From: Alphaproteobacteria bacterium
GTDB taxonomy: Bacteria; Pseudomonadota; Alphaproteobacteria; RF32; CAG-239
Reading direction: 5' to 3'
Assembly (NCBI GenBank): GCA_048463395.1
Contig: DBFWPL010000002.1
Coordinates: forward strand, 24,098-88,097
DNA length: 64,000 nt
The position numbers and the translations under genes were made by a program. Shown here one piece after another: positions 3,458 to 47,716 of this stretch. Under the pieces are notes generated by a model, which was given only the letters and a program-made list of their open reading frames with translations, did not search any database and had not been told where the DNA came from. Within the stretch, counting starts at the first letter, position 1. Each line of letters opens with the position of its first letter.

Positions 3458-5206
3458 GTGGAGAAGTTGGTTAGAAAAGCTGCGGTTTGGTTATGTTGTT
3501 TGGGGTGTTGGTGCATGATACCCTTTGGGAATGTGTCCGCCCGTCCGATTATTGATAATAACTGCTATAATCAAATTCTTTCTTATTTATATGTTTCCCG
3601 AGATGATGTAACAACTTACAAGAAAATTTTCAAAGCTCTGGAGAAAGAGGATTTTCGCACGGTTGACAATTTGATTGAAGACTTGGACAGCGATATTCTC
3701 ATGGGGCATGTTTTGGCCGAAAAATATCTTTCTAAAACCTACAAAAGTAAATATGTGGAATTGCAAATATGGCTGGAGAAGTATGGAGATTTGCCTCAGG
3801 CTGACAAAATTTACCGCTTGGCCGTAAGAAAAGGTAGAGAAGAAGGGTTAAAAGTTCCGGTCAGAGAAGACAAGCCGAGGGTGTTTTCTCCATACAGCTG
3901 GTTTAATAACCGGTATGAAAATCTGGCTCCTGCAGACAGGGCTTTTATTCGTAAAAAAATTGCCGAGTTCAGAAAAAACGTCAACAAGGGGAAAACTCGG
4001 GCAGCCAGAGCAATTTTGGAGAATAAAAGATTTCGGATGACTATTCCAAACAAAGAATATGATGCGATGTCGGCAACACTGGCGACAGTTTATTTTCTGG
4101 ATAATGAAGATGCTTTGGCGTTACGATGGTCGGAGAAGGCCGCCCGCCGCAGTCATGATGCGACGGCTTATTGGTTTGGCGGTTTGGCAGCATGGCGAAT
4201 GAAAAATTATAAATTGGCATCCGATTACTTTGGCAAACTGGGGAAACTTACCGATAATGACGAGTGGTTGGTTTCCGCCGGAGCTTATTGGGGATACCGA
4301 GCTCAATTGAGACGGAAGAACAAGGTGGAAGCGGAAAAACTTTTGCGGCAAGCCTCAAGATATAAGCGGACGTTTTATGGTATTTTGGCCAATTATAAGT
4401 TAGGTAATCCTATGGATTATAACTGGTCGGGAGCCTCTTATCTGAATGATTTCAGCAACTATGAATATATTAACGAACTGGTTTCGTCTCCGGCTATCCG
4501 TCGGGCGATCATTCTGGTTCATGCCAAGCGGAAAGATTTGGCAGAAAAAGAGCTTCGGGCTGATTTGACGAATATGAGCGATAAGCAGAAAGAGGCGGCG
4601 ATGTATATTGCCGATCAATATAAAATGCACGCATTGGGAATTTTAATTTCAAATCAACTTAAAAAGGACGATCAATCAATTTTTTATGACCATTTAGCTT
4701 ATCCGGCTCCGAATTGGAAACCTAAAAGCGGTTGGAAACTCGACAGGGCATTGGTTTTGGCTTTGGTTCGGCAGGAATCGGGATTTATGCCGAATGCGGG
4801 CAGCGGTGCCGGAGCCAAGGGGTTAATGCAGCTGATGCCAAACACGGCCTTTCATATTACCAAAGACCGGAGTTTGAAAAAAGATCATACACCGCTTTTG
4901 AATGCGGAATATAATCTGGAGACCGGTCAGAAATATGTCAATTATCTTTTGGAGAAACCGTTTATCAACGGAAATCTGTTTTTTCTGACAACGGCTTACA
5001 ACGCCGGTCCGGGAAATTTGCTTAAGTGGCAGAAAAAGATGAAGTACGGTAATGACCCTCTGATGTTTATTGAGACGCTTCCGGCCAGAGAAACCCGAAT
5101 TTATATTGAACGGGTTATGGCCAATTTTTGGGTTTACAGTGCCAAATTTGACAAGGAACACAAAAGTTTGAAAGAGCTTTCTGACGGTAAGTGGCCGACA
5201 TTGTAG
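3458..5206 (+). CDS. soluble lytic murein transglycosylase (SLT domain)
   Basis: C-terminal SLT motif LVRQESGFMPNAGSGAGAKGLMQLMPNTA...TTAYNAGPGN. N-terminal superhelical region. GTG start with signal-like N-terminus. Confidence 0.8.
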   Translation: MEKLVRKAAVWLCCLGCWCMIPFGNVSARPIIDNNCYNQILSYLYVSRDDVTTYKKIFKALEKEDFRTVDNLIEDLDSDILMGHVLAEKYLSKTYKSKYVELQIWLEKYGDLPQADKIYRLAVRKGREEGLKVPVREDKPRVFSPYSWFNNRYENLAPADRAFIRKKIAEFRKNVNKGKTRAARAILENKRFRMTIPNKEYDAMSATLATVYFLDNEDALALRWSEKAARRSHDATAYWFGGLAAWRMKNYKLASDYFGKLGKLTDNDEWLVSAGAYWGYRAQLRRKNKVEAEKLLRQASRYKRTFYGILANYKLGNPMDYNWSGASYLNDFSNYEYINELVSSPAIRRAIILVHAKRKDLAEKELRADLTNMSDKQKEAAMYIADQYKMHALGILISNQLKKDDQSIFYDHLAYPAPNWKPKSGWKLDRALVLALVRQESGFMPNAGSGAGAKGLMQLMPNTAFHITKDRSLKKDHTPLLNAEYNLETGQKYVNYLLEKPFINGNLFFLTTAYNAGPGNLLKWQKKMKYGNDPLMFIETLPARETRIYIERVMANFWVYSAKFDKEHKSLKELSDGKWPTL

Positions 5207-5571
5207 TCTTAATTTTCCTACCCCTAATAAGAGTTGTTTTTCGTCTAAAAATGTGCTAATATAATATTAGATAAAATATTATTAGAGGACATTTTGCTTA
5301 TGGGGTTTTGCCTTTTTGGGTTTTCCCGTGGATATCTAATAATCTTTTTAATCGGACTTAACGGTTGTTGAGTTTTTGTTTGAGGATTTGGGACTGTTGT
5401 TTGATTGGATGAGTTTTGATGTTTAGGTCTTTTACTTTGCGGTTTAGGACTTTTACGACGAGACATTTCTGATTTTGACGGACCTGAGACTTTGGACTTT
5501 AAGAAGTTTGACGACTGTCGGACTGATGTACAAAAAAAAGAATGTTGGACTAAAAAATAATATATTAAACA

Positions 5572-5828
5572 TGGGAACTTTCGTTTTCGTATGCGTAGTC
5601 ATCTTTATCGGATGGCTCGTGTTAAAAGTATTAGGTGGATTATGTGAGGTGATCGGCGTACTCTTTGCCCTTTGCGAACTGGCTTTGGGCGGAGCTATCA
5701 TCGGTGCCGGTCTCTTCTTCCTTTTTTCAGGATTTTCAATGAGTGCTGCCACTGTAGGTGCTGTCATTGGAGCTGTCATCGGTGCAATTTGCACTTTGAT
5801 GGATCTGAAAAAAAGAATTTTCAACTGA
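5572..5828 (+). CDS. small glycine-zipper membrane protein (hypothetical)
   Basis: Two hydrophobic segments with GxxxG-like repeats (GAIIGAGLFF, AVIGAVIGAI). The start is uncertain (track ORF from 5475). Confidence 0.3.
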
Positions 5829-45223: not shown

Positions 45224-45298
45224 GCGGGCGTAGCTCAGGGGTAGAGCGCAACCTTGCCAAGGTTGATGTCGAGGGTTCGAATCCCTTCACCCGCTCCA
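45224..45298 (+). tRNA. tRNA-Gly (anticodon GCC)
   Basis: Manual fold: acceptor gcgggcg/cacccgc (one C:A mismatch at 6:67), D-arm gctc-aggggta-gagc, anticodon arm caacc-ttGCCaa-ggttg, T-arm gaggg-ttcgaat-ccctt, encoded CCA. Confidence 0.85.
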
Positions 45299-45300
45299 TA

Positions 45301-45328
45301 AAAAAACCTCCTTTAGGGAGGTTTTTTT
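45301..45328 (+). terminator. terminator hairpin after tRNA-Gly
   Basis: aaaaaacctcctttagggaggttttttt. Confidence 0.7.
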
Positions 45329-45330
45329 AT

Positions 45331-45476
45331 GGAATTGAGGGGGAACGATGAGAACCCGAACAGAGGGTTCGGAGCGGATAGTTGGCGAGCACGATTTTAA
45401 GAAGTGCGAGGTTTACGTCGCGAAAGGGACCCATTGGCAGTGCCGATGGGAATTTACAATCCCTTCACCCGCTCCA
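45331..45476 (+). repeat. tRNA-linked structured element, copy 1
   Basis: Leader hairpin gaaccc-gaacaga-gggttc, then gagggttcg (tRNA-Gly T-stem 5' half plus first 4 nt of T-loop). A ~92-nt core follows: gagcggatagttggcgagcacgattttaagaagtgcgaggtttacgtcgcgaaagggacccattggcagtgccgatgggaatttac. It ends in aatcccttcacccgctcca, identical to tRNA-Gly from T-loop nt 58 through CCA. A near-identical copy of the tRNA terminator (45477-45510) follows. Confidence 0.7.
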
Positions 45477-45630
45477 TTAAAAAAGACCTCCTTTAGGGAG
45501 GTTTTTTTGTAAGGTTAATTCATGCTCTCTTTTGGGGAGTTTTGTTGTATTAGGGGAAGGATGTTCCCTTGATAAATTTGTTTGAGGGATTATTTTTATG
45601 CCATAACCTCTCTAAGCGAAAGTTTTAAGA

Positions 45631-47233: not shown

Positions 47234-47325
47234 TGGAGAGATGGCAGAGTGGTCGAATGCGGTTGACTCGAAATCAATTGTACTCTTTACGGGTACCGGG
47301 AGTTCGAATCTCCCTCTCTCCGCCA
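47234..47325 (+). tRNA. tRNA-Ser (anticodon CGA)
   Basis: Manual fold: acceptor ggagaga/tctctcc, D-arm gca-gagtggtcgaa-tgc, anticodon arm gttga-ctCGAaa-tcaat, long variable arm, T-arm gggag-ttcgaat-ctccc, discriminator G, encoded CCA. Confidence 0.85.
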
Positions 47326-47327
47326 TT

Positions 47328-47368
47328 TATAACAAAGCCCTCCCTTGTGGGGGGCTTTGTTATAAATG
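47328..47368 (+). terminator. terminator hairpin after tRNA-Ser
   Basis: aacaaagccctcccttgtggggggctttgttataaa. Confidence 0.6.
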
Positions 47369-47369
47369 A

Positions 47370-47513
47370 TGAGGAAGAGTGGAATTTGAACTCCCGGTGA
47401 GGAGTTCGGAGCAGATAGTTGGCGAGCACGATTTTAAGAAGTGCGAGGCTTACGATGCGAAAGGGCCCCATTGGTTTTGCCAATGGGAATTTACAATCTC
47501 CCTCTCTCCGCCA
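47370..47513 (+). repeat. tRNA-linked structured element, copy 2
   Basis: Leader hairpin gaactcc-cggtga-ggagttc, then ggagttcg (tRNA-Ser T-stem 5' half plus ttcg). Core is ~90% identical to copy 1 (gagcagatagttggcgagcacgattttaagaagtgcgaggcttacgatgcgaaagggccccattggttttgccaatgggaatttac). It ends in aatctccctctctccgcca, identical to tRNA-Ser from T-loop nt 58 through CCA. A terminator-like hairpin (47514-47550) follows. Confidence 0.7.
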
Positions 47514-47698
47514 TAACAAAAGCCACCTGAAAAGGTGGCTTTTGTTATGGCGGAGGACTGCTCAGCTTCGGATATATCCTTGCTTTGCAGAGGGAGACAA
47601 GTTTTTCTAAACTCACTTAACAGCTCTTGCTGTTTCGTTTGTTAATAAAAACTTTGTGATACGATAAAAAAAGATGACGTTAAGTCATCTTTTTTATC

Positions 47699-47716
47699 TA
47701 TCCCCTCTCTCCGATT
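47699..47716 (+). repeat. third fragment resembling the tRNA-Ser 3' end (cccctctctccg), preceded by a terminator hairpin
   Basis: atctatcccctctctccgattt versus tRNA-Ser aatctccctctctccgcca. Upstream hairpin agatgacgttaagtcatct plus T6 (47670-47697). Confidence 0.4.

Follow-up and report, generated by a model that had tools for sequence, protein, structure and literature searches.

In a stretch of 64,000 nucleotides (nt) from the genome of a gut alphaproteobacterium (contig DBFWPL010000002.1; hereafter the window), a small element stands directly behind the gene for tRNA-Gly(GCC) and copies parts of that gene's 3' end. We think it fairly probable that this element is one unit of the type known from Escherichia coli as the tRNA-operon distal repeat, or RtT, that is, a structured RNA module, about 150 nt long and without coding function, on the strand of the tRNA. 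Its 5' part is a purine-rich leader with a degenerate inverted copy of the T-arm, followed by a direct copy of the T-stem 5' strand and TTCG. The 3' part is an 86-nt core with covarying hairpins and then a 19-nt tail, which is identical to nt 58-76 of the tRNA with CCA included.

Anatomy of the module and its second copy

All coordinates are positions in the window and all features lie on the + strand. The tRNA-Gly(GCC) gene, whose 3' end the module copies, is found at 45224-45298 (ARAGORN; Rfam tRNA, 65.6 bits), and the boundary to the module is an intrinsic terminator hairpin at 45300-45328, able to act in either direction, with an A-run on its 5' side and a T-run on its 3' side. The purine-rich leader (45329-45351, ..GGAATTGAGGGGGAACGATGA..) is similar to the E. 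coli RtT leader GGGGAAGGATGAGAA, and holds the ATG (45348) of a non-conserved open reading frame (ORF) in a position equivalent to that of E. coli tpr. It is followed by the hairpin P0 (45352-45370), where GAACCC, the complement of the T-stem 5' strand plus TTC, pairs with GGGTTC; in the variants GGACCC and GAATCC this pairing is kept only by way of G.U. At 45363-45371, GAGGGTTCG repeats tRNA-Gly nt 49-57 exactly and in direct orientation, which covers the 5' strand of the T-stem and TTCG. After it come the 86 nt of the non-tRNA core (45372-45457) and the tail AATCCCTTCACCCGCTCCA (45458-45476), in which tRNA-Gly nt 58-76 recur without a change, CCA included. The core holds the helices Pa (45374-76 with 45419-21), P2 (45389-92 with 45404-07) and P5 (45430-38 with 45442-50), and helix P4 is formed by 45425-29 with 45460-64. 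Three stretches of the core, GATAG, GCGAAAGGG and GGGAATTTACAAT, are without any variation. A second terminator at 45480-45508 closes the site, which in the window consists of one unit.

The earlier note on this DNA had described a copy of the tRNA's 3' part that the core interrupts in the T-loop, after nt 57 and before nt 58, and this is correct, as exact copies of nt 49-57 and 58-76 flank it. The hairpins that it named are also present (GAACCC/GGGTTC, GCAC..GTGC and CCCATTGG..CCGATGGG), and its structured core is real, with a size of 86 nt and not the approximately 92-95 nt given there. The second terminator is indeed 2 nt longer than the first, but the difference is made up of one T that has become TT and, separately, one G added within the A-run, and not of a single 2-nt insertion.

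The core occurs once more in the window. A 41-nt core probe gave one further match, at 47408-47448 and with one mismatch, and shuffles gave none. The match is directly behind tRNA-Ser(CGA) (47235-47325; ARAGORN, Rfam), which is the sole other tRNA in the 64 kb and lies about 2 kb from the Gly copy. Since the core recurs at tRNA-Ser and no shuffle matched, the Gly core is not there by chance. The boundary between tRNA-Ser and the second module is again a terminator hairpin (47326-47366). Its leader (47367-47408) contains GGAATTTGAACTCC, a degenerate reverse complement of the tRNA-Ser T-arm that ends at 47394, and thereafter GGAGTTCG at 47401-47408, which is a copy of tRNA-Ser nt 50-57. The second 86-nt core (47409-47494) scores 145 bits with our covariance model R1 and is about 90% identical to the Gly core (90.5% over 95 nt). 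The tail AATCTCCCTCTCTCCGCCA (47495-47513) is an exact copy of tRNA-Ser nt 58-76, and a hairpin related to the terminator behind tRNA-Ser, ataacaaaagcc..ggcttttgttat, follows at 47514-47550. The upstream hairpin of the Ser copy has been altered to match its own tRNA (GAACTCC/GGAGTTC). About 200 nt past the Ser tail, after another hairpin and T-run (47672-47698), atcccctctctccg at 47700-47713 looks like the decayed remnant of one more tRNA-Ser tail, so that a second Ser unit would have been lost.

Folding of the 180-nt stretch at the Gly site is more stable than that of 200 out of 200 shuffles (z = -4.75). RNAalifold on seven sequences gave the helices P0, Pa, P2, P4 and P5, with 95.9% of the cells paired and three pairs changed on both sides; these changes include a Pa pair that goes from G-C to A-U in both Ser copies, and one P2 position shows four types of pair. 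The covariation score was exceeded by none of 500 shuffles and was far lower in slid controls. Read on the + strand, 209 of the 218 pairing cells can pair, as against 182 on the minus strand, a difference made up by 28 G.U cells. The body of the element is 84-91% identical between species, whereas the flanking intergenic DNA is 46-71% identical (62-71% for the 100 nt upstream of the tRNA and 46-55% for the 60 nt past the tail). All this is consistent with constraint on a structured RNA of the + (tRNA) strand, or possibly on single-stranded DNA of that strand. A primer-binding site on the minus strand was also considered and dropped, since the helices require G.U pairs on the + strand.

A search with all Rfam families at E <= 10, among them self-cleaving ribozymes, tRNA, transfer-messenger RNA (tmRNA) and YrlA, gave no match on the element. 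A hammerhead (GATGAG ... CGAAA) was dropped for this reason. Neither ARAGORN nor the Rfam tRNA and tmRNA models found a tRNA or tmRNA gene on the element, which confirms the statement that it is not a tRNA pseudogene.

The module could instead encode a small protein. The ORF at 45348-45512 (54 amino acids, MRTRTEGSERIV...), which is preceded by a Shine-Dalgarno-like GAGGGGG, would then be a counterpart of the 'protamine-like protein' tpr, whose annotated start in E. coli is the same ATG in GATGAG. Across the core the frame is uninterrupted in every copy, its ATG behind a purine-rich stretch is shared by the window Gly copy and three relatives (L021, L022 and L024), and in a fourth (L025) the ATG is in frame one codon earlier. 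Gene callers have moreover called the frame in five public assemblies. The substitutions do not behave as in a protein, however. The variable columns are spread 19/19/15 over the codon positions and the codon differences are nearly all nonsynonymous, with 17 nonsynonymous and 0 synonymous in the comparison of the Gly with the Ser copy, so the purifying selection on the reading frame that a tpr-like small protein should show was not found. By inspection, the upstream ATGs of the window Ser copy are out of frame with the core ORF, the aligned frame of both Ser copies begins with F and not M, the C-terminus is different in each species, and the called products are without a precomputed Pfam domain. 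We reject protein coding on the even codon-position spread and the nonsynonymous excess, and consider this explanation very improbable.

In the public assemblies, the calls on elements of this kind are hypothetical proteins of 56-127 amino acids (P0089-P0093), and the ORF of P0093 spans from tRNA-Ser through the element. They are almost certainly false gene calls.

Distribution, empty sites and other insertions at the two tRNA genes

Spurious gene calls of this sort made it possible to find relatives, by a protein-database search with the translated frame across the core, after which the contigs were fetched (labelled L here). The element stands behind tRNA-Gly(GCC) in four further species (L021, L022/L023, L024 and L025/L026), and the copies in L021, L022, L024 and L025 are 87-93% identical to that of the window. 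The hosts are uncultured Alphaproteobacteria, at least four besides the window genome. Every copy found is flanked by the 3' part of the adjacent tRNA, so that the test suggested in the earlier note is positive, and the tail in L024 even carries a base variant of that contig's own tRNA-Gly. In a strain with an identical neighbouring protein (L001) there are two tandem 180-nt units (2.3 copies of 180 nt). In three close relatives with more than 90% protein identity (L071-L073) both the Gly and the Ser site are empty, and the tRNA runs straight into its native trailer. The Gly element was not found in the more distant relatives L003, L005, L007 and L008.

The empty site in L073 also shows that the second terminator of the window is the one native to the locus. 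In L025 the native terminator comes after the tail, and the inserted unit therefore gives the tRNA a new terminator. The direct repeat that arises between tRNA and tail is not of one length, but 19, 21, about 27 or 50 nt at different loci, as it extends 0 to 31 nt beyond CCA and includes the locus-specific trailer.

Another, more distant element is found behind tRNA-Ser(CGA) in L005 and L008. It opens with GGGATTTGAACCC, a 13-nt inverted copy that is the exact reverse complement of its tRNA's T-arm, and closes with the last 19-20 nt of its tRNA. Between L005 and L008 there are six double compensatory changes. This type is without the copy of the T-stem 5' strand and TTCG, and an interrupted T-loop is therefore not universal. 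In L008 no terminator stands between tRNA and element, and L006 and L007, with a neighbouring protein identical to that of L008, have an empty Ser site where L008 has a filled one. Our own covariance model and hidden Markov model (HMM) of the Gly type gave no match to the L005 type. The 5' part of the window Ser element does resemble it, including the loop ATTTGAA, which matches the T-loop TTCAAAT of the L005 tRNA-Ser and not the TTCGAAT of the window, and the core of the window Ser element is of the Gly type. From these sequences we infer that the window Ser element may be old at its site and may have received its present core by conversion from the Gly element, at a distance of 2 kb.

Among close relatives the site is either cleanly filled or cleanly empty, with a boundary repeat of 19-21 nt from the T-loop, and this would also be expected from a miniature site-specific mobile element: an attachment-site (att) scar or a geneless, cis-mobilizable unit inserted at the T-loop or 3' end of the tRNA by an integrase acting in trans. 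In such a unit attL and attR would share the direct repeat as their identity block, and the hairpins would form in single-stranded DNA as structures of the recombination site. Integrases that use the T-loop or 3' end, and cis-mobilizable elements with only att, do leave such a direct repeat of the tRNA 3' part and an intact tRNA. That the inserted unit carries its own terminator for the tRNA (L025 compared with L021), that presence is patchy among species, and that tRNA-Gly is also the target of an unrelated insertion with a resolvase fragment (L006) speak for an origin of this kind, and the high conservation could be accounted for by recent spread. Against it, there is no integrase or other recombinase gene in or beside any copy, the unit is only about 130-165 nt, and the varying repeat with its local trailer is unlike a fixed att core. 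Exact-pattern scans with TTGGCGAGNNNNGATTTTAAGAA of genome, metagenome and viral collections gave only chance matches (the TTGGCGAGNNNNGATTTTAAGAA loop is not conserved, as the later L025 copy showed), and further viral scans and BLAST against phages and plasmids gave no real match to the element. The 5' part of the Ser element is common to species whose tRNA-Ser differ, which suggests long residence at the Ser site. Deletion by way of the direct repeat would yield empty sites without any insertion step, the covariation is strand-specific and of RNA type, and in E. coli the counterpart belongs stably to the tyrT operon. Taken together, we find a mobile element unlikely.

Two candidates from known transposon families were also tried. 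A miniature element of the IS200/IS605 type, which was prompted by an insertion after TTCG without duplication and by the subterminal hairpins, was rejected, since the hairpins are dissimilar and the repeat of 19-50 nt does not fit. A guide like the IS110 bridge RNA was rejected because of the long repeat and the lack of a recombinase.

The L006 insertion is found in one strain. It extends over about 930 base pairs (bp) in tRNA-Gly (4782-5737), with a 45-nt repeat from the anticodon loop and the displaced 3' part at 5692-5737. The tRNA receives a new T-stem from it (GTGGG/CCCAT), and its contents include part of a gene for a resolvase-like serine recombinase; the same tRNA-Gly therefore serves a classical integrative element too. 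A third kind of small element is seen in L074 (3990-4363), after the tRNA and its terminator, and runs from atgccttttttcagggg through gacgggatttatccctgtct to ..cgcctccag. It ends in CCCGCTCCA, the last 9 nt of the tRNA, with a copy of the terminator, and the same sequence restarts before the contig ends. Pieces of this type follow the tRNA-Gly terminator in L003 (4810-4900) and L005 (4840-4920), and in L021 (3134-3225) one of them interrupts the tail of the RtT-like element (..ctccag|tccgctcca). In the close relative L027 (1-100) a copy of the tRNA-Gly 3' end stands upstream of gtrA and is preceded by a different sequence (..ggcgatttggtgcgag|ccccttcacccgctcca); the match begins at the T-stem 3' strand, and as the contig starts there the element is only partly readable.

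The genes that adjoin the window element encode a histidine phosphatase, GtrA, an ASCH protein and a nitroreductase. In the acceptor stem of the window tRNA-Gly itself (CACCCGC), C6 and A67 are mismatched, as in several relatives; the paired variant CGCCCGC together with the T-loop TCCG (not TTCG) is found in the tRNA-Gly of L003 (4704-4778), L005 (4735-4809) and L024. Among the ten short-read Logan contigs listed for the lineage, five end inside tRNA-Gly (L075-L079) and L080 ends just before it, probably because the assembler fails on the repeat units behind the tRNA.

Comparison with RtT of E. coli

Knowledge of the E. coli rtT repeats goes back to 1978 and that of RtT RNA to 1991, and the repeats have been seen as an enterobacterial oddity of tRNA-Tyr. 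In the tyrT operon a unit of 178 bp is present about three times, each with the last 19 bp of tRNA-Tyr, and yields RtT RNA. In our analysis the repeat of E. coli K-12 has 3.1 copies of 178 nt (TRF), and four units match the Rfam family RtT (RF00391; gene rttR, with the tpr ORF inside) at 133-137 bits. The unit ends with AATCCTTCCCCCACCACCA, 19 nt that start from nt 58. The T-stem 5' strand and loop start are found as AAGGTTCGA 67 nt upstream of the tail, and the leader has the inverted T-arm copies GGGGAAGGAT and GAACCTTCGA. E. coli genomes contain 1-10 units each, and 688 of the 5426 complete genomes gave no match. This variation in unit number parallels the polymorphism in presence and copy number of the alphaproteobacterial element.

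The likeness between the two is extensive. Each immediately follows a tRNA gene and lies on its strand. At the window Gly and Ser sites, in L022, L024 and L005 and in both E. coli units, the unit ends in the final 19 nt of the tRNA (58-76, with CCA). At 67-86 nt upstream of the tail, the 5' strand of the T-stem and TTCG(A) recur as a direct copy of 9 nt (GAGGGTTCG in the window, AAGGTTCGA in E. coli), and this copy is preceded by an inverted copy of the T-arm, 10 nt long in E. coli, 11 nt in the window Ser copy and the 6-nt GAACCC of P0 in the window Gly copy. Tandem units of about 180 nt in variable number are found in both (180 nt in L001, 178 nt in E. coli). Alongside the inverted T-arm copy there is a leader motif GGGGAA.GATGAGAAC, and the similarity of the leaders (GGGGAACGATGAGAACC..CGAACAGAGGGTTCG against GGGGAAGGATGAGAAGCTTCGACCAAGGTTCG) has a score that only 2 of 1000 shuffles reached. 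The cores have the motif CGAA(A)GGG in common, and the tpr ORF (MRSFDQGSTR...) and the window ORF (MRTRTEGSER...) share the ATG of GATGAG. The differences are that the host tRNAs in the window are Gly(GCC) and Ser(CGA) and not Tyr, that the organism is an uncultured alphaproteobacterium and not an enterobacterium, that the core is 86 nt here but 67 nt in E. coli with different hairpins, and that an intrinsic terminator separates the tRNA from the window module.

The tRNA-like domain of tmRNA, YrlA and the viral tRNA-like structures are other cases of a CCA 3' end derived from T-arm and acceptor on an RNA that is not a tRNA. The window module differs from them as it has no 5' acceptor strand and no D arm, and its tail repeats the adjacent tRNA exactly instead of being a mimic in its own right; tmRNA and YrlA are further set apart by the lack of an ARAGORN or Rfam match on it.

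According to PMC3318445, which cites Bosl and Kersten (1991), E. coli RtT RNA is a discrete product released from the tyrT transcript. The only proposal for its role in the cell, as Bosl and Kersten (1991) are quoted in the literature, is modulation of the stringent response. In Klebsiella pneumoniae, RtT RNAs have been annotated at two loci (genes 1634, 1637, 1640 and 1642, and genes 3273 and 3275 beside tRNA-Tyr; PMC4147364), and enterobacterial RtT units may therefore not be limited to one locus.

Several observations weigh against the element being an RtT unit. The Rfam RtT model, which has a gathering threshold of 45 bits, gives no match on the window element even at E <= 10, and conversely neither our nhmmer HMM nor covariance model R1 matched any E. 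coli rtT unit. As the models fail both ways, homology with RtT rests on the architecture and one short leader similarity, and the latter is in part the T-loop sequence common to all tRNAs. The structure is built on only seven sequences. A tRNA-specific complementarity between leader and tail was tested, and the pairing energies showed no such specificity. A strong terminator intervenes between tRNA and module, and no promoter-like site was seen 5' of either window copy, so that transcription would have to start at the tRNA promoter. Some copies also look decayed: the one behind tRNA-Ser in L027 is truncated at its 3' end and without a tail, the L025 tail has a deletion and the L021 tail is interrupted.

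Such damage, together with the close relatives that lack the element at both sites and with unit numbers between 0 and 10 in E. coli, would agree with functionless debris, a decaying and neutral by-product of tandem duplication or rearrangement at tRNA ends. Neutral debris would however not keep its body so much better than the flanks, nor would its helices be kept by compensatory and G.U-only changes, and the design would not be expected to recur in two proteobacterial classes. We judge this explanation to be rather improbable, more so than a mobile element.

Of the two meanings that the earlier note proposed without recognising the RtT precedent, a small RNA with a tRNA-like 3' end fits better, because the hairpins covary, need G.U pairs on the + strand and belong to an architecture that matches RtT RNA. 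The scar of an integrative element has the filled and empty sites in its favour, and the missing recombinase, the variable repeat and the absence of phage, plasmid and viral matches against it. The window element is thus built like an RtT unit and would also work like one. Judged from the comparison it is probably a distant relative, and not a demonstrated member of RF00391.

Proposed mechanism and meaning

With the anatomy, conservation, strand, non-coding nature and polymorphism of the RtT-like module described above, we propose the following for its transcription, processing and recombination. The tRNA promoter would drive the module, either because the polymerase reads through the terminator or, as in L008, because no terminator stands in between. 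In the transcript, the T-stem-like 5' strands would pair with the tail, and the tail, being identical to the tRNA, could be trimmed by the machinery for tRNA 3'-end maturation, which would give a discrete CCA-ended RNA like the RtT RNA of E. coli. In the genome, the tail, sometimes with the trailer, makes a direct repeat of the end of the tRNA gene, and unequal homologous recombination between the two could lead to tandem gain or clean loss of units. Gene conversion is a reasonable explanation both for the continued identity of tail and tRNA and for the homogenised Gly and Ser cores, which are 2 kb apart. By analogy with E. coli, the module may modulate stress or stringent physiology, or it may be a decoy for factors that read tRNA 3' ends.

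What is new here is not a category of system but the occurrence of RtT-type modules behind other tRNAs and in a further proteobacterial class. The same design behind both tRNA-Gly and tRNA-Ser singles out the features that are conserved, namely the start of the tail at nt 58, the T-arm copies and the structured core, and the element family offers both natural covariation and, in the empty sites, natural knock-outs. It also suggests that a wider class of tRNA-linked RNAs escapes the present RNA family models. A practical effect is that the repeats break metagenome assemblies at tRNA genes and that spurious small 'proteins' enter the public databases.

A wider and more speculative idea, to which we can give only a low probability, is that RtT-type modules are old and widespread tRNA appendages in several proteobacterial classes, tailored to the host by their three tRNA-derived segments and with an active role. 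If this were true, they might act as a decoy or regulator for RNase P, for the 3' trimming and CCA enzymes and for toxins that target tRNAs, or they might instead propagate themselves, homing to the ends of tRNA genes with the tRNA sequence as address.

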